64,000 nucleotides of DNA, from NCBI GenBank assembly GCA_963721685.1, contig CAVRJJ010000001.1, forward strand, positions 68,555 to 132,554, given 5' to 3'. The notes under the pieces were generated by a model. The model did no database searches and was not told the DNA's origin. It was given only the letters and a program-made list of their open reading frames with translations. This stretch comes from an uncultured bacterium. GTDB lineage: Bacteria; Patescibacteriota; Saccharimonadia; UBA4664; SCTI01. The translations under genes and the position numbers were made by a program. The stretch's first letter is position 1; each line of letters starts with the position of its first letter. Of the stretch, positions 2,750 through 20,075 are shown in pieces.

Positions 2750-4507
2750 ATGATCACCTATCTCCGTTTTCGTCTGCAACGCAACTTACGCCGGGTGCAG
2801 CGTAATGTGAGGCGCTTGTGGTATATGGGCAAGCGTTATATTAGGTTTGGGTTCTGGGGTAAATGGCGGCAGCTTACCATGATCCGACGGTTTGCCCTGG
2901 GTTGGTGGTTCGTAGTGATTGCCCTGGGCCTGGGGCTTGCACTGCAAACAAGCTCGATTCGCCAACGCGGGCTAGTAGCCCAGCCCCAAGCGGGCGGGAG
3001 CTATAGCGAGGCGGTGGTAGGCACAATTAAAAACTTGAATCCGGTGTTGCCTGAAGGCGGGGCCAGCGCCGATGCCAACCATCTTATTTTTAGCGGCCTA
3101 ACACGCACTACGGCCGAGGGAAAGCTGGAGCCTGATATTGCCGAAAGCTGGGACATTAGTCCGGACGGTAAGATCTATACTTTCCACTTGCGTAAGGACG
3201 TGCGTTTTCATGACGGTGTACCGGCAACCGCGCAAGATGTGGTTTTTACGCTTACGGCTATTCAAAACCCGGATACCCGCTCTGCCCTGGCTGCCAGCTG
3301 GCAGGGGGTGAAGGTTGCCGCCCCGGATGACCATACGGCTGTGTTTACCTTGCCAAAGGCTTATACCCCTTTTATTAACGCTACTACGGTGGGGCTTCTC
3401 CCGCGCCACCTTCTTGAAAACACCGAGCCAAAAAACTTAAGGGTGGTGGAGTTTAACCAAAAGCCGGTCGGTACCGGCCCCTACAAGCTATCGACCTTCG
3501 ATTCAACGTCCGGTGAAATTAACCTGACTGCAAACACCGCTTATTATCACGCGAAACCGCTGATCGCCAACATTACTCTTCGTCTTTATAGTGACTATGA
3601 CAAGGCCTTAGATGCCTATAAGCATCGTCAAGTGCTGGGCGTAGGGCGTTTGCAGCCGGATCAAATGAATGAGGCGGCCAAGTTGGGGACCTTATCGCTC
3701 TACCGGGCAAGCGTGCCTAACGCGGTAGGGGTATTTTTTAAGACAACTTCGCCGGTCCTTCAAGACAAGGCGGTGCGCCTAGGGCTCGCCCAGGCAACTG
3801 ATCGCGGGGCAATCGTAAAAAAGCAATTCCACAATGAGGCGTCACCATTGACCGGACCGCTTCTTAGTACCGGGTTAAATATGGCGGGAGCCGCCCACCA
3901 GCCGGCTTTCAACCTTAAGCAGGCGCAAACGACACTGGAGTCAGCTGGGTGGAAAGAGGGCCGGGGCGGCATCCGTGCCAAGAATGGTAAGTCGTTAAAA
4001 ATTAAGTTGGTTACCCAAGCAAACAGTCCTTATTCTCCTGTAGCCAAAGAGCTGGCCAAACAGTGGAAGCGCGTCGGGGCCGACCTCGACATAACTGAAG
4101 TCGGTCCGGATAAGTTACAGCAAAGCTATATTCGCCCGCGGAATTACGACGCGCTTTTGTACGGCATTAATTTAGGGGCAGACCCTGACGTTTACGCTTA
4201 CTGGAGCTCCTCGCAAATCAAGGATCCGGGACTTAATATCTCGGCTTACAGCTCGAAACAGGCAGACGCGGCGCTGGAAAGCGGGCGCATCTTGCGCGAC
4301 CCCGCCTTAAGGGCAGCAAAATACCGCAGTTTTATTCAAGCCTGGGTGAATGATACGCCGGCGGTCATGCTGTATACACCAAGTTATGAGTACGGGGTTG
4401 ATAGTTCGGTTTACGGCGTCTCTATCCGCAAGCTCATAAGCCCTTCCGACCGGTTTACCGGGATTGAGAAATGGTCGGTTAATGTGCGCGAAGTGCCTCG
4501 CCGCTAG
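2750..4507 (+). CDS. ABC transporter substrate-binding protein, family 5 (peptide/nickel type); the true start may be internal (about 2879)
   Basis: Signal-anchor helix, then the conserved ...IAESWDISPDGKIYTFHLRKDVRFHDG...TAQDVVFT... SBP_bac_5 pattern. The N-terminal 40 aa are Arg-rich and may not be translated. Confidence 0.7.
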   Translation: MITYLRFRLQRNLRRVQRNVRRLWYMGKRYIRFGFWGKWRQLTMIRRFALGWWFVVIALGLGLALQTSSIRQRGLVAQPQAGGSYSEAVVGTIKNLNPVLPEGGASADANHLIFSGLTRTTAEGKLEPDIAESWDISPDGKIYTFHLRKDVRFHDGVPATAQDVVFTLTAIQNPDTRSALAASWQGVKVAAPDDHTAVFTLPKAYTPFINATTVGLLPRHLLENTEPKNLRVVEFNQKPVGTGPYKLSTFDSTSGEINLTANTAYYHAKPLIANITLRLYSDYDKALDAYKHRQVLGVGRLQPDQMNEAAKLGTLSLYRASVPNAVGVFFKTTSPVLQDKAVRLGLAQATDRGAIVKKQFHNEASPLTGPLLSTGLNMAGAAHQPAFNLKQAQTTLESAGWKEGRGGIRAKNGKSLKIKLVTQANSPYSPVAKELAKQWKRVGADLDITEVGPDKLQQSYIRPRNYDALLYGINLGADPDVYAYWSSSQIKDPGLNISAYSSKQADAALESGRILRDPALRAAKYRSFIQAWVNDTPAVMLYTPSYEYGVDSSVYGVSIRKLISPSDRFTGIEKWSVNVREVPRR

Positions 4508-4669
4508 CATAGGGGCTACGTCGGCTTACCGGGTAGAAACTTTTCTGAGCATGGTCACCAAGGCTTACGCCGGGTGACGACATGCCACAAAAGTTCTACC
4601 GCGGCGCGCCTGCGCAGCCTTTCAAAAAGGTCAAAACCAAGCTATAGTTTATCAGTCAACTTGTATCCC

Positions 4670-4755
4670 GGGCGAGTGGTGAAATGGTAGACACGCTAGA
4701 TTCAGGTTCTAGTGAGCGCAAGCTCGTGGAGGTTCAAGTCCTCTCTCGCCCACCA
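4670..4755 (+). tRNA. tRNA-Leu (anticodon CAG), class II with long variable arm
   Basis: Manual fold: acceptor GGGCGAG/CTCGCCC, D-loop AATGGTAG, anticodon loop TTCAGGT, T-loop GGTTCAAGTCC, discriminator A, encoded CCA. Confidence 0.85.
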
Positions 4756-4767
4756 ATGCACTTATAG

Positions 4768-5622
4768 CTAATCAACAATTTTAGTGTAGGCGCGGGGTTT
4801 ACGGTAAGCGTTACCCCAAATTTGTCGCTTTCGCCAGAGACGAATTGACTTCATGTCGAATTCGGCATAATAAATACCTTCCCGACCATCAGCCTGAACC
4901 AGGCGGTTATCTCTATCATTTTGGCCTTCATCTTCAGTTACTGGGCTGAAAGCCACCGAATGGCCGTTATATTTGGGGAGAGGATAGTTTGCCATTGCGA
5001 CGCCAACCATATTTTCAAATGCCCTTGTGGAAAACTGTTGCAGCTGGGCCTTCCTAAGATTGCTAGCATTGGGGACAATAATAATCTCTGCGCCTTTCAG
5101 CATGAGAATACGGGCACTTTCAGGCTGCTCTCGGTCAAAGCAAATCATGGCGCCGATTTTGATTTCTCCAGCGGCGGTATCAAGAGCAGCAACCTCAAAC
5201 CGCGTTCCTGGCTCTAATAAAATTTCATCACCGAAATCACAGGTATGGACTTTGGAATAGTGGAGGCGCTCCTTGCCGTGGCGATCAAAAACGGTTACCG
5301 AGTTTTTTGGCATCGCCCTTCCGCAATCTTCGAGATAAGTGGCAGCGATAGCAATATTAAGGCTTTTGGCCAGCTTTCCAAATGACCGGACATAGTAACT
5401 AGTGCGGGCAACAGCCAGACGGTTCCATTTCTGGATATCGTGTTGATTCTGAGAGGGGGGAAACGTATAGCCGATATTCCAGAGCTCGGGAAACAGCACT
5501 ATGTCGACGTTTTTCCCAGCAGCTTCTTTGCAGCGCTCCAAAGCCATATCCTCTGCTTCCTTGAAAGTACGGGGAGGAGCAATTTGAAGAAGAGCAATTT
5601 TCACGGATTCCTTCATAGCCAT
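4768..5622 (-). CDS. Carbon-nitrogen hydrolase (nitrilase superfamily)
   Basis: N-terminal KIALLQIAP...DIVLFPELW... and GAMICFDREQPE (catalytic Cys context) match the Glu-Lys-Cys triad layout of CN hydrolases. Confidence 0.75.
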   Translation of the reverse strand: MAMKESVKIALLQIAPPRTFKEAEDMALERCKEAAGKNVDIVLFPELWNIGYTFPPSQNQHDIQKWNRLAVARTSYYVRSFGKLAKSLNIAIAATYLEDCGRAMPKNSVTVFDRHGKERLHYSKVHTCDFGDEILLEPGTRFEVAALDTAAGEIKIGAMICFDREQPESARILMLKGAEIIIVPNASNLRKAQLQQFSTRAFENMVGVAMANYPLPKYNGHSVAFSPVTEDEGQNDRDNRLVQADGREGIYYAEFDMKSIRLWRKRQIWGNAYRKPRAYTKIVD

Positions 5623-10131: not shown

Positions 10132-10218
10132 GCGGGCGTGGTGGAATGGTAGACACGCCAGCTTGAGGGGCTGGTGGCCGCTTAGGCCGTGGAGGTTCAA
10201 GTCCTCTCGTCCGCACCA
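10132..10218 (+). tRNA. tRNA-Leu (anticodon GAG)
   Basis: Manual fold: acceptor GCGGGCG/CGTCCGC (one G-U), anticodon stem CCAGC/GCTGG, loop TTGAGGG, long variable arm, T-loop GGTTCAAGTCC, encoded CCA. Confidence 0.8.
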
Positions 10219-10228
10219 ATAACAATTA

Positions 10229-10305
10229 GGGCGATTAGCTCAGCTGGTTAGAGCACCTCGTTTACACCGAGGGGGTCGCGGGTTCGAATCCCTCATCGCC
10301 CACCA
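10229..10305 (+). tRNA. tRNA-Val (anticodon TAC)
   Basis: GGGCGATTAGCTCAGCTGGTTAGAGC..., anticodon stem CCTCG/CGAGG, loop TTTACAC, T-loop GGTTCGAATCC, encoded CCA. Confidence 0.85.
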
Positions 10306-10313
10306 TCTTACCT

Positions 10314-10589
10314 ATGAAATTAACAGAAAAAATCATCAATGAACGATTGGTGGAAATTCCAGGCTGGAAATTTTCCGATGATCGCCTGTACCGTGAATTT
10401 TCATTTAAGGATTTTGTTATCGCATTTACATTCATGATAAAAGTTGCGGAAATTGCCGAACAACGCAACCATCACCCTGATTGGACGAACATTTACAATA
10501 AAGTGACAATTCGGCTTAACACTCATGCCTTCGGAGGGGTCACGGATAAAGATTTTCAGTTAGCTAAAGAAATTAACACCTTGATTTAA
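10314..10589 (+). CDS. Pterin-4a-carbinolamine dehydratase (PCD/DCoH)
   Basis: EIPGWKF...DFVIAFTFMIKVAEIAEQRNHHPDWTNIYNKVTIRLNTH is the PCD signature ([EDKH]-x(3)-H(2)-P...). Confidence 0.8.
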   Translation: MKLTEKIINERLVEIPGWKFSDDRLYREFSFKDFVIAFTFMIKVAEIAEQRNHHPDWTNIYNKVTIRLNTHAFGGVTDKDFQLAKEINTLI

Positions 10590-10639
10590 TTGAAAAGCGA
10601 CACTATTTTCGCTATTATCTCTAGGTCGCGTTAGTACTC

Positions 10640-10715
10640 GGCGAGATAGCTCAGTTGGTAGAGCAGTGGCTTGAAGAGCCTCGTGTCCTCGGTTCGAGTC
10701 CGAGTCTCGCCACCA
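10640..10715 (+). tRNA. tRNA-Phe (anticodon GAA)
   Basis: GGCGAGATAGCTCAGTTGGTAGAGC, anticodon loop TTGAAGA (one U-U mismatch in the stem), T-loop GGTTCGAGTCC, encoded CCA. Confidence 0.8.
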
Positions 10716-10726
10716 AATATACACAT

Positions 10727-10802
10727 GCGGGTGTAGCTCAGCTGATAGAGCGCTTCCTTGCCAAGGAAGAGGTCCAGGGTTTGAGTCCCTGTACCCGCAC
10801 CA
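10727..10802 (+). tRNA. tRNA-Gly (anticodon GCC)
   Basis: GCGGGTGTAGCTCAGCTGATAGAGC, anticodon stem CTTCC/GGAAG, loop TTGCCAA, T-loop GGTTTGAGTCC, encoded CCA. Confidence 0.8.
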
Positions 10803-10957
10803 AAACGAATTTATAGATACTGCGCATCTTAATGGTGTGCTTTATTTTTTACGCTTATCTGTTAACGGTTTTAGTCTCGATTTCAACATTACTAACAAGC
10901 ATATATTTAAACTGGAAACTGTTGTAAGATGTCTTTTTTGTTATCATTATTCTATGC

Positions 10958-11466
10958 CTCAAACAAAAGATTTAATCGTTAACCATATATTTAATGCCCC
11001 AATCGAAAAAGTCTGGCAAGTCTGGACAGCAGAAAGATTCGTACAACGGTGGTGGGGAGTAGATGGCTTTACGAATATTTTGGCAAAAATGGATGTGCGT
11101 GAAAGCGGCATTTCGCATGTAGGAATGCGCGCCTCTAAAGAATACGGTGGATTGGATTATTACAATGTCTTTGAATATACACAAGTTGTTCCGCACAAGC
11201 TCATTAAATTCATAAGTAATTTTGCGGACGAGCAAGGAAATATAATTCCCCCCACACAAGCAGGCTTACCTGCAGAGACAGCTATGAATAAAAAACAGCA
11301 AGTTGAATTCGAAGCATTAGATGATACAAAAACCAAGGTCACTATTACAGAGTTTGGGTGGCTCGCAGACGGTATAATGCTTGAACGATCGCGGCGTGGA
11401 CTTGAGCAAACCTTATTAAACATTGATAAAGTATTAGAGGATGTAACGTCATGGACAAAGCAATAA
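10958..11466 (+). CDS. SRPBCC-fold protein (AHSA1 / polyketide-cyclase-like); upstream extension to 10837 unlikely
   Basis: VNHIFNAPIEKVWQVWTAERFVQRWWG is a typical SRPBCC/Aha1-like N-terminus. Low-GC gene. Confidence 0.55.
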
Positions 11467-12240
11467 ATGAATAAGACTAATTCTCAAGACGCAACAACTA
11501 TTGCCTTTGATAAAAAAGGCCAAGGACCGCTATTGATTTTGGTACTTGGAGCCTTGAACAGGCGTAGCCAAGGAAAAAAACTTACCGAGCTACTTTCTGA
11601 CCAATTCACTGTAGTGAGTTATGACCGGCGCGGTCGAGGTGACAGCACTGATACGCTGCCCTACACAATCAATAAAGAAGTTGAAGATATTGAAACATTA
11701 ATCAATGAATTAGGCGGGGAGGCGTACTTGTACGGACACTCATCAGGCTGCGTACTTGCACTCATGGTAGCAAAAGAACTAGGCGGCAAAGTTAAAGGCT
11801 TAGTACTGTATGAACTCCCGTATAACGCTGATCCAGCCGCTAAGACTGCTTCAGAAGTTTACAGAAAAGAACTTAAACGGCTCCTCGATGAAGATAATCG
11901 TGACGACGCGGTTGCCTTATTTGTAAAATCGGTGGGAGTAAGTGATAAGCAAATTGCAGCCATGGAACGTTTACCTATGTGGAAAGGTTTGACTGCCATG
12001 GCTCATACACTTGCTTATGACACTATCGAGCTTATGGAACAGTACCCAAAACTAGATACTAAAACCATAGATACAAGATCATTAGTCTTATATGGGGCTA
12101 ACAGCCCTGACTTCATGGGCGAGACAGCAAAGAAACTTTCAGAGACCATGCCTAATGCTCAGCTCCGTTCTCTTGACGGACAGTCTCACGATGTTAAGGC
12201 TGATGTTATCGCTCCGGTGTTGGCTAAATTTCTTCTTTAA
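11467..12240 (+). CDS. Alpha/beta-fold hydrolase
   Basis: GHSSG nucleophile elbow (YLYGHSSGCVLAL) with His near the C-terminus (GQSHDV). Starts one codon after the upstream TAA. Confidence 0.7.
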   Translation: MNKTNSQDATTIAFDKKGQGPLLILVLGALNRRSQGKKLTELLSDQFTVVSYDRRGRGDSTDTLPYTINKEVEDIETLINELGGEAYLYGHSSGCVLALMVAKELGGKVKGLVLYELPYNADPAAKTASEVYRKELKRLLDEDNRDDAVALFVKSVGVSDKQIAAMERLPMWKGLTAMAHTLAYDTIELMEQYPKLDTKTIDTRSLVLYGANSPDFMGETAKKLSETMPNAQLRSLDGQSHDVKADVIAPVLAKFLL

Positions 12241-12340
12241 AATTCATAGCGGAATACAGCCTAACTCAAGTAGTAGTAATACTTTTTGTATCTGTTAATA
12301 TGGTTATAACTTCAGCAACCGTGCTGCACCATTCGCAACT

Positions 12341-12368
12341 TTGAGCCCATTTAGGGCTCTTTTTTATC
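12341..12368 (+). terminator. Rho-independent terminator after the alpha/beta hydrolase
   Basis: GAGCCC-ATTTA-GGGCTC hairpin followed by TTTTTTA. Confidence 0.55.
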
Positions 12369-12525
12369 TGTTAATTCTGGGTTTTTAACACCTCTTATTC
12401 CTAGCAGAAGGAGTTAAGACGAAAAGTTTAGAAAGAAGGCTGCTTATTAGAGAAGATGATGGAAATAAGAATGCGTTTTAACCTAATTACCACAATGCCA
12501 TATTCAAACTGTTATATTCAAAACC

Positions 12526-12747
12526 ATGATTAAACTATTAAAAAAGAAATCGTTAATAATTGTTATTTCTCTTTTTATAGTATGCGGAAGACTTATTGCA
12601 TATTATGCAAATAACAAAAATGTTCCACTTATCAAGAAATACCCAAAAACAAAATTTAGTAGTGGATACGAGCAAAACGCTTTTATCTACAGCTGTTCCA
12701 AAGAAATAGAGTGTATATTACACTGGTGTAACAAATCACGAATTTAA
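12526..12747 (+). CDS. Hypothetical small membrane protein (73 aa)
   Basis: AT-rich ORF with one N-terminal TM helix and no motif. Coding status is uncertain. Confidence 0.3.
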   Translation: MIKLLKKKSLIIVISLFIVCGRLIAYYANNKNVPLIKKYPKTKFSSGYEQNAFIYSCSKEIECILHWCNKSRI

Positions 12748-12766
12748 GGGTGGCGGACCAGAGTAT

Positions 12767-13159
12767 TTGCCAGTTAGCCAAGAGGAAGCTAAAAAATACT
12801 GCAGAAGCGAAGGAGTCATTGAGTATCGTGCAGTATTTGATATCCTTAAAAGAGAAGACGTTAGTAGTATCATTGCTAAATATGACACGACGCAAGCTTG
12901 GGTCAGGGCTCTTGGCCATAAATATATACACGCCAAGGAATACCTAAAGCGTATATTGCCTGCATATAGCGATATGAAGATAGACTGCATTATCGTGGTG
13001 CACTCGCCAGAAAGTACTAGATTCTTCATCGAGGATGGTGAAAAACACAAAAGCCATCATGACCATCATTACCGCGAAGTTCCAGCTCAAGAATTTCTGA
13101 CATCACTCAATAATGCACCAGACACAGACGTAACTAGCTTTTGGCTAGGCTTGCATTAA
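12767..13159 (+). CDS. Hypothetical protein (130 aa) with a His-rich stretch HKSHHDHHY
   Basis: ORF in the low-GC accessory segment. No recognisable family. Confidence 0.4.
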   Translation: MPVSQEEAKKYCRSEGVIEYRAVFDILKREDVSSIIAKYDTTQAWVRALGHKYIHAKEYLKRILPAYSDMKIDCIIVVHSPESTRFFIEDGEKHKSHHDHHYREVPAQEFLTSLNNAPDTDVTSFWLGLH

Positions 13160-13317
13160 GCCACGTCCAGCAAATCTCTAAGAAGTAATGTTTTACTTTC
13201 GTAGCTAATAGCGCACCATTGAAATCACCAAGATTTACATCTGTTAAGTACCGACAAAATTGGTGTTTTTAACTAAACCCAAACAGAACTCAAACGCACC
13301 CTTTTGTTATAGTTAGT

Positions 13318-13735
13318 AATTTAGAAATAGATTAAATATAACGAGTAGTCCGACGCTCGCTACGACAGTCGGAATTGCGATAAATGAACTTAAATACCCT
13401 GCAAAGCCCTGCGACAAAGCTGCGGCTGAGGCAATGCCACCAGCAACCATAGCAAGACCAATTAGTACATTTAGCCACCGCTTGCCGAAGGCATTGTGCT
13501 AATACACAGAAACGCTGGCACTTACTGGATAGGGCCCAGCCAGCTCCCTGTATGAAAAGGCTGTGAACGCAGCAGTAATCGTTGCGATTAAGAAAGCCAG
13601 TGTGATACTGGTTCCAGCAAATCCAGCAACTTTTCCTACCAGAACATCAATACCCGCCCCGAGTATATTACCCAGACCATATAAGGTAACGAGCGGAAGA
13701 CCGAGCGACCGTTTTAACTTTACGCTACTGCTCAT
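13318..13735 (-). pseudogene. APC-family amino-acid permease, N-terminal fragment interrupted by an in-frame TAG
   Basis: Minus-strand translation gives ...LVTLYGLGNILGAGI...AGPYPVSASVSVY*HNAFGKRWLNVLIGLAMVAGG...FNLFLNY*. This is a single frame with an internal TAG at 13499-13501, and only about 140 of the roughly 450 aa expected remain. Confidence 0.55.
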
Positions 13736-13889
13736 GCTTTTTATTCTAACAGTTCACAGGCTTATATTATGGGCTACAGACCTTTAAACCAACATGCTTG
13801 AGATGGTTACTTGTTTTGTTTAAGTGCGACAGTTGCCACACAAAATTGACATACGTATGGTATGGTGGTACAATATACAATACTGTTTA

Positions 13890-14162
13890 GGAGATGTAAT
13901 GTTTGAGGTTCTAAAAAACTCGCTTAATAGCTGGAATGTACAAAAGAGCGAACGACAAAAGCTACAGCATGCTTATTTAGCTTTGACTGTATTGGTAGTA
14001 TTGCTTGCAGGGATTATAAGCCTATTTGACGGTGAGCTGGGCCATAACATAGTGCTTGTGGCGCTAATTGCTATTGGAGCTTACTTTGTAAATTCAATTG
14101 TGTGGAATCTGTTGCAGGCTTCATTGCTTGATAAGCTATCAACTAAACCCAAAAGAAAATAA
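13890..14162 (+). CDS. Hypothetical small 2-TM membrane protein
   Basis: MFEVLKNSLNSWNV...ALTVLVVLLAGIISLF...VLVALIAIGAYFV. Followed by a hairpin at 14177-14204. Confidence 0.4.
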   Translation, partial: GDVMFEVLKNSLNSWNVQKSERQKLQHAYLALTVLVVLLAGIISLFDGELGHNIVLVALIAIGAYFVNSIVWNLLQASLLDKLSTKPKRK

Positions 14163-14378
14163 GAATATTTAGCTAATTAGGAACATGGGAGTTCCTAATT
14201 TATTCGGTAGATTTCTGGTATTCTCTAAGAAATAGCGTTTTACTTTCGTAGCTTAACGCGCACCGAATGGGAATTATCGGACGCTTCTGTGTCCTTTTTT
14301 TATTGTTGTTAATCTGTGGAAGAGTATTGAATGTTAAAATCAGATAGGAACTAACTTAAATGAAAGCGAGTATATAAA

Positions 14379-14759
14379 ATGGCAAAATATGTTGATGGTT
14401 TTGTACTGGTAGTTCCTAAAGGAAAAGAAGCTGAATACCAGAAAATGGCAGAAGAAGGGCGTGATTCATGGATGAAGCACGGTGCGCTTCAATACTTTGA
14501 ATGCAGAGGTGATGATCTGAAGCAGCAGGAAATGGGTGATCATAAATCACGTGCTTATAAAGAAATGGCTGGTGCGGGTGACGATGAAAACGTCTGGTTC
14601 TCATTTATTGTTTTTGAATCTAAAGAACATCGCGATGAAGTAAACAAGAAAGTTATTGCTGAGATGGATGAAACATATAGCGATCAGACTGACTTTGAAA
14701 TGCCGAACGATATGAAGAAAATGGCGTACGGTGGCTTTGCGGTAGCAGTTGAGGGTTAA
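14379..14759 (+). CDS. DUF1428-family protein
   Basis: MAKYVDGFVLVVPKGKEAEYQKMAEEG...WMKHGALQYFEC matches the DUF1428 N-terminal pattern. Confidence 0.55.
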   Translation: MAKYVDGFVLVVPKGKEAEYQKMAEEGRDSWMKHGALQYFECRGDDLKQQEMGDHKSRAYKEMAGAGDDENVWFSFIVFESKEHRDEVNKKVIAEMDETYSDQTDFEMPNDMKKMAYGGFAVAVEG

Positions 14760-14869: not shown

Positions 14870-15661
14870 TTGGCATCGTGGTTCGGGAAAAGTTCGCTGA
14901 TTAACCAAACGTTTGTGAAGGCCTATCCCGATGCAATCATGATTGACCAGTCGGGCGTGGGTGTAAACAGCCGCTCGAACCCAGCTACCTACACCGGAAT
15001 CATGGACGTGATCCGCAAAATTTTCGCGTTGGCAAATAAGGTCGACGCCTCATTATTTAGCTTCAACTCGAAAGGCGGTTGCGAAAACTGCCAGGGGACG
15101 GGATATGTCGCGACCGACTTGGCATTTTTAGATGAAGCGAAACTGGTTTGTGAAATCTGCGAAGGAAAGCGCTTCAAGGAGGAGGTGCTTGCGTATACCT
15201 TCAATAGTAAAACTATCACCGATGTTCTTGCTATGACCATTGCTGAATCCTTGGAATTCTTTGAAGACAAGGAAATCAGCAAGAAGCTGCGGGCGATGAA
15301 TGATGTTGAGCTGGACTACCTGACCCTGGGGCAGCCGCTTAGTACGCTGTCTGGCGGTGAATGCCAGCGCCTCAAATTGGCGGGCGAACTGCACAAAAAA
15401 GGCAGCATTTACGTTATGGATGAACCGACAACTGGCCTGCATACCTCCGACATCCAGCATCTGCTGGATATTATGAACCGTCTGGTTGATGGCGGGGACA
15501 CCGTTGTTGTCATCGAACATAATCTTGGCGTTATCAGGCAGGCGGATTGGCTTATCGATATGGGGCCGGAAGGCGGCAAACGCGGAGGCAAAGTCTTGTT
15601 TGAAGGAATCCCCGCTGACCTTAAAAGCTCCAAAGATTCCTTCACCGCCCAGTATATTTAG
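14870..15661 (+). pseudogene. UvrA-like excinuclease ABC subunit A, 5'-truncated remnant (C-terminal ABC domain only)
   Basis: Begins inside a Walker A (..FGKSSLIN). Contains a zinc-finger-like CENCQGTGY...CEICEGKR, the ABC signature LSGGECQRLKLA, Walker B YVMDEPTTGLH and a UvrA C-terminus. At 263 aa it is far shorter than the roughly 950 aa expected. Confidence 0.65.
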
Positions 15662-18183: not shown

Positions 18184-19974
18184 CTACTTCTTAGGGTCGT
18201 GGTAGCGGGTAATGTCGGCGTGATTGGTTGGGTTCGGTGCCGGGGAAGGGGGCGGTACCGAAGGATGCGCGGGTGTTGGAGGCATTATGTTATCCTCCGG
18301 TGATTCAACGTGGTTCAACCGGTCACGGGCACTTTGCAGGGGGTGTTCTTCCAGCGGGGCGGTTTCATAGTGCGGCGCAGGCGCGACCGTGGTGGTACCG
18401 GGTACCACTCCTGGTGTGGGTTTGGGAATGTAAGGGTTTCCGGCACTGGCGAGCGGGCCATTAGTATACATGGTTTCACTTTGCCGGCGGCGCATCATAA
18501 CGATGAATCCGCCCACGATGGCCGCTACTGCCGCGGCCAAAAGGATCCAAAGCCAGGCGCTGCCGCCACTTTTCACCGCTGCAAGGACCAAGGGCTTTTC
18601 AATTTCAAGGGTGCGGATATTTTGCTTTTCATCTACTGAAGAGTTCAGTAAGGAAGCCTTTTTACCGGTTACACTGACTATCTTCATTTTAGCGGCAGCT
18701 TGTTTGCCGGAGGCTTGGAAAACCACCCTGATTGGATTTTTATATTCAGTAATTTCATCGCCGGACTTATTTTTACAGGTGAGCGAGTTGGGTTTAATCA
18801 AACTGTTCTTGGGCGGAATAACGCTGCTTTCTGACACCGCGCAGGACAACTCTTCGCTAAATGTCCCGGCGCTAATCTCGTAGCACACGCTGTTATTGTC
18901 CGAGCATATAGTAGTAGCTTCCTCGGGAACAACATTGGCTTCAAAGTCGTTTGTTGCCAGTTCTGTAGTGGCGTATGGGCTGGCATTGCCGGCCGCATCG
19001 ATGGCCGCCACACGATAGTAGTATTTGGTGGCAAATTCAGTCGAGATGTCATCAAAATTAGCGGTTAAGCTTTCTTGAAGCACTACCCATTCGTCACCTC
19101 CAAGCGAGCGCTCAATTTTGTAGGTTGTCGCGTCACTAACCGTGTCCCAGGTAAGGGATACCACGCCGCTATCTTGGGTTGCTGCAAGGTTCTGTGGAGT
19201 TCCCGGCGGTGTTGTATCTGGTGCGGGCGCTGGTGTTGTTGGCTTAGTGCTGACAAACGGAATAGTGATCCCTCCCAGATTCGGTCTTGGCGTAGGACTA
19301 GGGGTTGGAGCGGGTGAAGGGCCGGGCTGAGGACTGGGGCTCGGGCCAGGAGGAGGCGGCGGCCCAGGTGGAGGAGGCGGCGGCCCAGGTGGAGGAGGCG
19401 GCGGCCCAGGTGGAGGAGGTGGAGGAGGTGGTGGTGGTGGTGGAGGTGGAGGAGGAGGAGGCGTCGGATCATCATACGTCATGTAATAGTAAAAAGGGCC
19501 GTTTGCGCCGCCATTGGTTAGTGTAAACGAATTGCTATTTACCTTATAAGGGGAGCCTGGGTGCTCATAATATCCGCCTTTAATCGCGTAGTAAATATAG
19601 TATTGCGCGGAGGAGCCGGGTGGGTTGGTCCCCGAAACCGGACACGTATAAAATACGGATGCCCCGTCACCATTGGTAATAGAATAGGCTCCATTACCGC
19701 TTGAAGATGACCGGCAATACCATGAAGCGTCTGGACTACCAAGCGAGGAACGTATTCTAATATCAACATTTGGAATTCCGCCACCGTGAACTGGGTCTAC
19801 AACATATAAAATCACATAATTGTTCCAGGCTGTAGGAGCGTTGTTGGCAAACGAATTGTAAACAACATATGTTCCCGTAACTGCCGATACTGCGGCAATA
19901 AGAAAAATCATCGCGGCATTCAAATGATGCAGCGACATGAGCTTGACTGACTTTTTGCTCCGCTTCATATGCAA
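18184..19974 (-). CDS. Type-I membrane cell-surface protein with a polyproline stalk and a fibronectin type III domain
   Basis: N-terminal signal/TM helix; a Tyr/Gly-rich N-terminal domain; a run of 17 Pro followed by GPPPPPP repeats and a PS/PT-rich linker; an FN3-like segment (LTWDTVSDATTYKIERS...YYYRVAAIDAAGNAS); a C-terminal TM (WLWILLAAAVAAIVGGFIVMM) followed by an RRR stop-transfer; a Pro-rich cytoplasmic tail. Confidence 0.7.
   Translation of the reverse strand: MHMKRSKKSVKLMSLHHLNAAMIFLIAAVSAVTGTYVVYNSFANNAPTAWNNYVILYVVDPVHGGGIPNVDIRIRSSLGSPDASWYCRSSSSGNGAYSITNGDGASVFYTCPVSGTNPPGSSAQYYIYYAIKGGYYEHPGSPYKVNSNSFTLTNGGANGPFYYYMTYDDPTPPPPPPPPPPPPPPPPPPGPPPPPPGPPPPPPGPPPPPGPSPSPQPGPSPAPTPSPTPRPNLGGITIPFVSTKPTTPAPAPDTTPPGTPQNLAATQDSGVVSLTWDTVSDATTYKIERSLGGDEWVVLQESLTANFDDISTEFATKYYYRVAAIDAAGNASPYATTELATNDFEANVVPEEATTICSDNNSVCYEISAGTFSEELSCAVSESSVIPPKNSLIKPNSLTCKNKSGDEITEYKNPIRVVFQASGKQAAAKMKIVSVTGKKASLLNSSVDEKQNIRTLEIEKPLVLAAVKSGGSAWLWILLAAAVAAIVGGFIVMMRRRQSETMYTNGPLASAGNPYIPKPTPGVVPGTTTVAPAPHYETAPLEEHPLQSARDRLNHVESPEDNIMPPTPAHPSVPPPSPAPNPTNHADITRYHDPKK
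19352..19418. repeat. 21-bp tandem repeat (about 3 copies of GGCGGCCCAGGTGGAGGAGGC) inside the polyproline coding region
   Basis: Direct reading of 19352-19418. On the minus strand it encodes (PPPPPGP)n. Confidence 0.8.
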
Positions 19975-20075
19975 ATAGTATATATTAAAACGGTTATGCT
20001 ATCAAACGATGTTCTGTTAAGCCAACAGATAGCCATGTATAATTTGGAGGTTACCCACAGCATAAGCATACGTTT

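Follow-up and report, generated by a model that had tools for sequence, protein, structure and literature searches.

The 64-kb window analysed here (64,000 nucleotides of contig CAVRJJ010000001.1, assembly GCA_963721685.1, from an uncultured bacterium of the Saccharimonadia) carries on its reverse strand a gene for a large putative surface protein. From the N-terminus, the protein consists of a predicted signal peptide, a small head, an extremely proline-rich spacer, an FN3 domain, a second beta domain with a ZU5-like fold, a transmembrane helix and a proline-rich tail. The FN3 domain, the ZU5-like domain and the helix form a base that, as far as sequence comparison tells, belongs to a rare, Saccharibacteria-only (TM7) and so far undescribed family whose members mount different heads on it. 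The coordinates of these features are collected in Table 1.

The gene was found as an intact open reading frame (ORF), called mechanically at 18184..19974 on the minus strand, that encodes 596 aa from a TTG at 19974. The original prediction, made from the letters alone, had described this large ORF and its layout; the ORF is real and the layout holds, but an ATG lying two codons inside (19968; MKRSKK...) is the likelier start, which would make the product 594 aa long. Residues are numbered from this ATG throughout. A promoter-like site stops 9 nt before it; this is a consensus match only, from a scan of the region that found 4 sites against 2.8 expected by chance. No Shine-Dalgarno sequence is visible upstream of the ATG, so the transcript may lack a leader altogether or carry only a very short one.

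The public NCBI/ENA call (P0001, 100% identical) comprises only the last 326 aa (18184-19164) from an internal GTG, a start that cuts into the opening strands of the FN3 fold; the head, stalk and signal peptide are consequently missing from the protein databases. Each half of the full-length protein has homologues, the head in P0013 and the C-terminal module in P0002, P0003 and L002-L006. Further, an independent 4290-bp Logan contig from run ERR12037361 contains the SDR, DUF1361 and PNPOx genes and the first 397 codons of the focal gene (counted from its 3' end). The gene call on this contig keeps the frame open through the proline region up to the contig end, which lies inside a 21-bp repeat array (at about 19377 in the window); a second contig of the run begins within LemA. 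The focal strain is present in this run. Since the contig stops inside the array, the repeat is evidently hard to assemble from k-mers.

How does the protein sit in the membrane? All eight family members compared have a basic N-terminus and one hydrophobic segment followed by a small-x-Ala motif (SFA, ALA, SHA, SHA, THA, SFA, TRA and TKA), and in every member one transmembrane helix lies near the C-terminus, with basic residues directly after it. The cysteines of the family all lie between the two hydrophobic segments and are always even in number. The focal protein has six, all in the predicted ectodomain, with conserved pairs in the head (C85/C109) and the base (C376/C398). Because small-x-Ala follows the hydrophobic core, positive residues are cytoplasmic at both segments and the even-numbered cysteines lie between them, a Sec-exported type I membrane protein is the best-supported topology, and a well supported one; the signal peptide would probably be cut after SFA, at residue 40, a cleavage that is predicted only. 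The type I arrangement of spacer, helix and proline-rich tail foreseen in the original prediction is thus supported by hydropathy, the eight-member comparison and the AlphaFold2 helix, and we found nothing to suggest a cytoplasmic protein whose N-terminal helix is neither signal nor anchor. There is no LPXTG motif before the transmembrane helix, which is followed by ~100 residues; sortase-anchor models match its hydrophobic/basic part below threshold (NF058582, 20.9 bits against a cut-off of 27; PF00746, E 0.12).

The tail is of low complexity, and Pfam and NCBIfam scans revealed no recognizable domain in it. Its juxtamembrane Y-I-P-K aligns with a motif, Y-[IWLF]-[RKS]-[KR], that occurs ~15-30 residues past the helix in all members of the family. 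A long proline-rich tail (~100-170 aa) is common to the focal protein and P0013 only, the tails of the other members being 21-35 aa.

Table 1. Positions of the focal gene, its parts, and related gene clusters in other genomes (aa, residues counted from ATG 19968)
Feature	Position	Strand	Evidence or detail
Focal gene, full coding sequence	18184..19968	-	ORF listing and sequence; both halves with homologues
Promoter-like site TTGATA-17-TATACT	19977..20005	-	Consensus scan, 10/12 matches
Predicted signal peptide, aa 1-40	19849..19968	-	n-region MKRSKKSVK (aa 1-9), core aa 17-37, then SFA
Head, aa 41-167	19468..19848	-	Tyr/Gly/Ser-rich (12% each); P0013 homology
Pro-rich spacer, aa 168-255 (88 aa)	19204..19467	-	Composition
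Polyproline core, aa 170-207, P18-GP6-GP6-GP5	19348..19461	-	Translation; period-3 and period-6 arrays found by Tandem Repeats Finder (TRF)
Perfect 21-bp tandem repeat, 3.4 copies, encoding (GPPPPPP)n	19349..19419	-	TRF, 100% matches, score 142
FN3 domain, aa 256-340	18949..19203	-	AlphaFold2 pLDDT 80-93; Foldseek
ZU5-like membrane-proximal beta domain, aa 341-466	18571..18948	-	AlphaFold2 and Foldseek; C376/C398 invariant
Transmembrane anchor, aa 471-492, then RRR	18493..18558	-	Hydropathy 2.61; AlphaFold2 helix aa 471-503
Predicted cytoplasmic tail, aa 493-594	18187..18492	-	23% Pro, no Cys
Stop codon	18184-18186	-	
DUF212/surface-protein clusters in relatives	L001 6664-9945; L002 5780-8995; L004 5244-8181; L083 184-5971; L003 1870-2703		L003, DUF212 only

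Stalk, head and base

The polyproline core opens with 18 consecutive prolines (P18, residues 170-187), one more than the P17 of the original prediction, which was otherwise right about a long Pro/Gly-Pro run giving way to PS/PT repeats. Units of GP6, GP6 and GP5 make up residues 188-207, so that the 38 residues of the core are 35 prolines and 3 glycines. PS/PT dipeptides run on to residue 229, and a looser Pro/Thr-rich stretch continues until about residue 255. Of the 60 residues from 170 to 229, 46 are Pro and 5 are Gly; this proline density and the perfect 21-bp repeat are far beyond chance. The DNA for P18 is itself a degenerate (CCACCT)n array, detected by TRF, that adjoins the 21-bp repeat. 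Proline codons in the spacer are CCT or CCA in 38 of 54 cases, whereas the other genes of the window favour CCG or CCC (211/320). The spacer codons are therefore atypical for the genome, a signature of repeat expansion and not of codon-by-codon selection. As the 21-bp repeat is in frame, slippage would alter the stalk by 7 aa per unit. Opposite the polyproline tract lies an antisense ORF of 73 aa (19305-19526, plus strand) that reads (EEAAAQV)n(E/V)n; we rejected it as a gene, since it merely mirrors the CCN repeats on the other strand.

AlphaFold2 models the core as neither helix nor strand, at a per-residue confidence (pLDDT) of 62-70. As a polyproline II (PPII) helix, with the textbook rise of 3.1 Å per residue, the core would be ~12 nm long, and the whole 88-residue spacer would reach up to ~27 nm if extended. 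Among bacteria, such a long proline homopolymer is an extreme case. Of the polyproline motifs of E. coli, 91% are only triplets, and none of its proteins contains three PPP units or more (PMC4218817). The 38-residue core is also an outlier among the linkers of its family. Comparing stalk lengths across the relatives, as the original prediction had proposed for strains, gave linkers of 23-82 aa with longest proline runs of 2-6, and in L006 a linker that is Ser/Gly-rich instead. The linker of P0013 has 82 aa, is of the PT/PA type, and has no proline run longer than 3. Given this PT/PA linker, the perfect repeats that make up the rod and their atypical codons, the polyproline rod is a recent, lineage-specific elaboration of an ordinary spacer.

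The head is Tyr/Gly-rich, as had been noticed from the sequence, and Ser is just as frequent in it. It has very few relatives. A word-indexed search of 5.8 billion proteins gave no match, and an exhaustive HMMER search of 1.84 billion representative proteins turned up P0013 (44% identity, E 7e-13) as the single true relative; tblastn (E 7e-19), MAFFT and phmmer recover the same match. In P0013 this head occupies the same position, with C85 and C109 conserved; the base domain, the membrane helix and the long proline-rich tail are likewise shared with the focal protein, but the FN3 domain is absent. Further matches were weak only, and were to Ig-like repeats and to repeats of P0015. P0015, a 650-aa protein of the representative library, begins like a type IV pilin (KPAFTVVEIIIV...) and continues with four repeats of ~110 aa; these resemble the first 70 residues of the head (DASWYC..SG.G..GNGAYSY; whole-sequence E 1.5e-8, 15-18 bits per repeat). 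Searching Pfam and PDB sequences with the head yielded nothing usable, the lone weak match, to Big_1 (E 0.015), coming from P0013. A scan of JGI metagenomes with the head alignment produced 76 pattern matches, none of them a relative. A likeness to CarboxypepD_reg/prealbumin-like domains, seen by eye in the pattern V.D..G.P..g..I.I, was dropped since no model supports it. Neither the head nor the base domain has a paralogue in the window.

Structure prediction is firmer for the other end of the ectodomain (aa ~256-466), ~210 residues of ordinary composition. The full-length AlphaFold2 model, built from a shallow 4-sequence alignment, is confident only for aa 256-466 (pLDDT 80-93) and the transmembrane helix. 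Its first part is an FN3 fold, as the original prediction held, and superposes by Foldseek on 7jgu (TM-score 0.88, root-mean-square deviation 1.7 Å over 92 columns), 4wtw (TM-score 0.78) and 4u3h (TM-score 0.76). Pfam models do not pick this domain up by sequence: fn3 (PF00041, gathering score 25 bits) has no hit in the focal protein at E<=1, and in five relatives that have only the linker-adjacent FN3 it scores 19-24 bits, under the cut-off. The 39.7-bit PF00041 hit in P0003 is to an additional FN3 in its head and not to the linker-adjacent one. In NCBIfam there is a weak match of the focal protein to the FN3 region of the exoglucanase CbhB. The domain is conserved in 7 of the 8 family members, P0013 being the one that lacks it.

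Between the FN3 domain and the membrane is a conserved domain of ~125 aa that the original prediction overlooked. Modelled alone, aa 341-466 give a pLDDT of 88.9 and a pTM of 0.84. In the PDB, the first 15 Foldseek matches of this model are without exception ZU5 domains of ankyrins (E 5e-4 to 2e-2, TM-scores 0.45-0.62), and these are followed by a GAIN domain (4dlo) and the FIIND of NLRP1 (7crw). No match to ZU5 (PF00791) was found in seven family members at E<=10, nor did sequence searches of the PDB or Pfam give a hit; for want of a sequence-level match, we call the domain ZU5-like by fold only. Inspection of the family alignment by eye showed no ZU5-UPA/GAIN cleavage motif (H/S-F-S or HL-T), and the domain runs straight into the transmembrane helix with no UPA-like second subdomain. 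The family has an 'IPAGA' strand motif that we take to resemble the typical ZU5 strand motif. When a degenerate DNA pattern for IPAGA...GP....CK was used as a probe, it matched three loci, all by chance in unrelated genes. The original prediction had made the FN3 domain the binding domain projected from the membrane. This does not hold, for FN3 and the ZU5-like domain together form a membrane-proximal base, and it is the head that is the variable distal part.

Relatives and genomic setting

Protein searches found the relatives P0002, P0003 and P0012, and searches of GTDB species representatives found L002-L006; P0013 was added through the head. A word-indexed search with a profile of the C-terminal module returned only P0012 and the truncated self-match, and P0001, P0002, P0003, P0012 and P0013 are all singleton clusters. 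The tblastn matches to L001-L005 have E 1e-21 to 3e-27. Four of the five loci L002-L006 are labelled Saccharibacteria or Saccharimonadales and one Nanoarchaeia, the last with the same gene neighbours as the others. Apart from this Nanoarchaeia-labelled metagenome-assembled genome (MAG), the relatives with a full module come from Saccharibacteria MAGs or unlabelled assemblies. The homologues are thus extremely rare, and are not the ubiquitous housekeeping proteins that would have told against the original prediction.

The family has a common plan: a basic N-terminus, a hydrophobic core with small-x-Ala, a head, a Pro- or Ser/Gly-rich linker, FN3 (except in P0013), the ZU5-like domain, the transmembrane helix, and a tail with Y-x-x-K. 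FN3, base domain and helix are conserved at 20-36% identity. Columns invariant in the family (alignments A3 and A4) are a T, an F, an N, C376, P393, C398, K399, G403 and Y513, and there is an 'NxF..N' junction. The heads are unrelated to one another: that of L003 is a DUF4214 domain, that of L005 a DUF5648 domain, that of L006 an NBR1-like Ig domain, and that of P0003 has the extra FN3; those of P0002 and L002 are unassigned. Such a mix of conserved base and unrelated heads is what one would expect of a display scaffold that carries different binding modules.

In the window the focal gene has ordinary company: its neighbours are genes for DUF1361, PNPOx-like, LemA, HtpX, LigA, GatA/B and DnaE proteins, along with tRNA-Cys and tRNA-Leu. 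The two tRNA genes lie ~110 bp upstream of the focal start on the opposite strand (divergent), in agreement with the tRNA adjacency claimed in the original prediction; an Rfam scan of the window found tRNAs only. The claim that the gene sits in an accessory island is supported neither by its composition nor by its flanking genes. Without its linker, the gene has a GC content of 0.503 and a third-codon-position GC (GC3) of 0.516, similar to its neighbours and to be set against a window mean of 0.497. The island that was meant is probably a low-GC patch (10837-14759; GC 0.38-0.44, GC3 0.33-0.39) directly after a cluster of four tRNA genes (10132-10802), and genes of normal GC stand between it and the focal gene. 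The patch encodes small proteins of an accessory type, namely an AHSA1/SRPBCC protein, an alpha/beta hydrolase, a DUF1428 protein and two orphan ORFs, and no integrase was found in it. At its edge lies ORF 14870-15661, whose match to the ABC_tran ATPase domain is confined to the C-terminal part (profile positions 74-137) and which overlaps a 197-aa antisense ORF; this may be what is left of a gene, or a gene that has been truncated. Elsewhere, the window is syntenic from 36.8 to 51 kb with a Saccharimonadales MAG (L056; 45-57% amino acid identity, with one PBP1 match at 28%). Along with the taxonomy of the relatives, this synteny would put the window in the Saccharibacteria.

Five relatives (L001, L002, L003, L004 and L083) have a different and conserved setting. 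In these the family gene is directly behind a gene for a DUF212 (divergent PAP2) membrane protein. In L001, L002, L004 and L083 there is also, upstream, a gene for a surface protein of ~755 aa with a signal peptide, a Pro/Thr/Ala linker, Asn/Gly-rich 'SGNANVSGNT' repeats and a C-terminal transmembrane helix, which makes this a conserved cluster of surface-protein genes. We had considered the ~755-aa protein as a GT-C-type O-glycosyltransferase for the PT linker, and rejected this because it has only two hydrophobic segments and the signal peptide-linker-repeat-anchor layout just described. Immediately downstream of the family gene in L002 (10868-11704) is a gene for a protein with a signal peptide, PG_binding_1, a proline-rich linker, a transmembrane helix and a basic tail, and in two relatives a GT2 cellulose-synthase-like gene is nearby. 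In L006 the adjacent gene (4034-5008, minus strand) is, read by eye, of the CorB/DUF21-CBS type, and the examined part of this locus showed no pilus genes; in Saccharibacteria, corB is reported to belong to the conserved surroundings of the Pam pilus operon (10.64898/2026.03.03.709456). No gene for DUF212, CorB or the ~755-aa surface protein occurs in the 64-kb window. Since the window lacks the DUF212 and ~755-aa genes, the focal copy is at a different, and probably secondary, location.

Possible roles of the protein

What might such a protein do? On balance, and with moderate confidence, the sequence points to a type I surface-display protein that is adhesin-like or receptor-binding. It would be exported via Sec, cut after SFA, and retained by the C-terminal helix with its proline-rich tail in the cytoplasm. 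Outward from the membrane would then come the disulfide-containing ZU5-like domain, FN3, the 88-residue spacer, whose polyproline core would form, as PPII, a stiff rod ~12 nm long, and the small disulfide-containing head. The head would be the specificity element, and the base and spacer would carry it through or beyond the wall layers to an external ligand, for which a structure on the host cell surface is the most plausible candidate in an epibiotic Saccharibacterium. Slippage in the 21-bp repeat would shift the length of the stalk in 7-residue steps. There is a precedent in Southlakia epibionticum, where envelope proteins with FN3, VCBS or dockerin domains are essential for epibiotic growth and have been proposed to bind host glycans (PMC10633639). 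Moreover, the family gene of the relatives lies among other surface-protein genes, those for the ~755-aa and PG_binding proteins described above.

Several points weigh against this reading. The N-terminal 268 residues of the protein are not part of the public annotation. The head, on which specificity would depend, has no match to known binding domains in the 5.8-billion-protein search, PDB sequences or Pfam, and its AlphaFold2 model, effectively a single-sequence one, is unusable (pLDDT ~30). The long core of the signal peptide (~21 residues) could stay in the membrane as a second anchor, which would turn the projecting stalk into a loop. That the stalk spans the wall of this organism is conjecture, and the exact copy number of the 21-bp repeat may be an assembly estimate. 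Finally, P18 should strongly stall ribosomes (EF-P-dependent stalling), which may keep production of the protein low; there is no efp gene in the 64-kb window, which is uninformative.

The same parts can be put together in other ways. In the first of these the protein is a membrane-anchored tether or spacer of the envelope, its head binding the cell's own wall, surface layer or exopolysaccharide and its rigid rod setting or maintaining the distance from the membrane to the outer layers. The clusters with envelope proteins and DUF212 in five relatives, the PG_binding_1 protein downstream in one of them and the GT2 gene near two would fit such a role, and so would the DUF4214 and DUF5648 heads, which have no demonstrated part in host binding; the conserved base, too, suggests a constant partner near the membrane. 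However, a structural part of this kind should be common and conserved, and the members found are singleton clusters with unrelated heads and widely varying stalks, the focal copy lying outside the envelope-gene cluster. We consider a tether unlikely. Could the protein instead be a transmembrane sensor, in which the head takes up a ligand or a mechanical load, the ZU5-like domain transduces it or is cleaved, and the tail recruits partners? The fold matches to ZU5, GAIN (4dlo) and the NLRP1 FIIND (7crw) bring this to mind, for some members of these classes cleave themselves, and the conserved Y-[IWLF]-[RKS]-[KR] motif and the long tails of the focal protein and P0013 would fit it too. But the ZU5 likeness is at the level of the fold only (TM-score ~0.6), no H/S-F-S-like motif is evident by eye in the alignment, there is no UPA-like subdomain, the low-complexity tail has no recognizable domain and is only 21-35 aa in most members, and no signalling genes adjoin the focal gene. 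A sensor therefore seems improbable to us. Slightly more doubtful still is a more elaborate proposal, that the FN3-ZU5-like-helix base is the core of a host-recognition cassette system specific to Saccharibacteria. In it, interchangeable heads would decide to which host surface an epibiont docks, in-frame, repeat-driven length changes of a polyproline ruler would tune the reach through two envelopes, and the ZU5/GAIN-like domain and the cytoplasmic motif would report engagement to the cell.

Two other explanations we regard as very improbable. One is that the tandem FN3-like base and C-terminal helix terminate or tether a pilus assembled by donor-strand exchange. PamR, from a Saccharibacterium, has been proposed as such an anchor and is described with RbmA-like tandem FnIII domains and a C-terminal transmembrane helix (10.64898/2026.03.03.709456); Foldseek aligns our full-length model to tandem FN3 structures, and the gene next to the family gene in L006 is CorB-like (by eye), corB being reported in pam-operon neighbourhoods. 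Against this, PamR starts with a single donor strand, the place of which is taken in the focal protein by a head of 127 aa and a spacer of 88 aa, and the best fold matches of the second base domain make it ZU5-like and not FN3. The Pfam-scanned ORFs of the window include no pilin, chaperone or ATP synthase family, and the nearest genes in L001, L002, L003, L005 and L083 are not pilus genes. The other explanation is that the long ORF is not a real gene, either because only the 326-aa product is made or because the gene is decaying or chimeric, with a slippage or assembly artefact. The internal GTG start of the public annotation, the break of the k-mer assembly of ERR12037361 inside the repeat, the lack of a Shine-Dalgarno sequence before the ATG and a P18 that is hard to translate could all be cited in its favour. 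Yet the frame is open over 594 codons, the Logan call runs through the proline region to the contig end, and the promoter-like site is just upstream of the ATG. Starting at the GTG would cut the FN3 domain and strip the export signal from a protein with an ectodomain and a transmembrane helix. The head has its 44%-identical homologue at the same position in P0013, with the same base, helix and tail, and all relatives carry a signal peptide, head and linker before the C-terminal module.

Comparison with known systems and significance

Two of the closest parallels come from the same phylum. The Southlakia epibionticum proteins (for example SEML1_0890; PMC10633639) are, like the focal protein, secreted or envelope proteins with FN3 and a proposed contact with the host surface. 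As compared by description only, those proteins are flagged for glycan-binding domains, whereas the head of the focal protein is an orphan and is joined to a polyproline rod, a ZU5-like base domain and a transmembrane anchor. PamR of Ca. Mycosynbacter amalyticus (WP_260763282.1; 10.64898/2026.03.03.709456), likewise compared by description, has an N-terminal donor strand and is encoded in a pilus operon. The focal protein has in its place a head and a long spacer, and a ZU5-like second base domain; no pam operon (Pam pilins, PamC/D chaperones) surrounds its gene, the relatives adjoining DUF212, surface-protein or FtsK genes. The ZU5 domains of ankyrin, UNC5, PIDD and NLRP1 (FIIND) and the GAIN domain are like aa 341-466 in predicted fold (TM-score up to 0.62), but they are eukaryotic and mostly cytoplasmic, whereas the domain described here is predicted to be extracytoplasmic, has a conserved Cys pair, and lacks a UPA partner and a self-cleavage motif.

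A further comparison is with Gram-positive surface proteins whose proline-rich regions span the wall or form stalks. Listeria ActA, the P-region of streptococcal AgI/II, and pneumococcal PspA and PspC resemble the focal protein in having a signal peptide, a distal domain and an extended proline-rich segment before the anchor, and ActA also has a C-terminal transmembrane anchor and not a sortase one. They differ in that they have no sequence relationship to the focal protein, mixed proline repeats in place of an 18-residue homopolymer, mostly LPXTG or choline anchors, and eukaryotic ligands. The proline-rich rod of TonB and the Pro/Thr linkers of glycoside hydrolases from Cellulomonas and other actinobacteria are rigid or extended spacers that separate modules across an envelope compartment, in other proteins with other functions; the PS/PT part of the focal spacer resembles the PT boxes of cellulases. 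We know of none of these rods and linkers with pure polyproline this long.

The signal peptide, proline-rich stalk, FN3 domain and membrane anchor are thus familiar parts. What is new is the Saccharibacteria-restricted ZU5-like base, the swapping of heads on it, the extreme length of the polyproline, and a distal half that is hidden by annotation. Because the gene call drops the head and stalk from the public record, surveys of protein databases for such surface proteins are biased. If this is merely a generic surface protein, the value of the finding is modest and mainly annotational; if the cassette proposal were true, the family would be a bacterial counterpart of adhesion-receptor mechanosensing. 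With P18 and the three GP5-6 units, nature provides a case for testing how polyproline is translated by a minimal translation apparatus, and for testing the idea of a PPII 'ruler' in the envelope of a bacterium. Beyond type IV pili, host recognition and attachment by Saccharibacteria and other ultrasmall epibionts are largely obscure, and a constant base with swappable heads is the pattern to be expected of specificity determinants.

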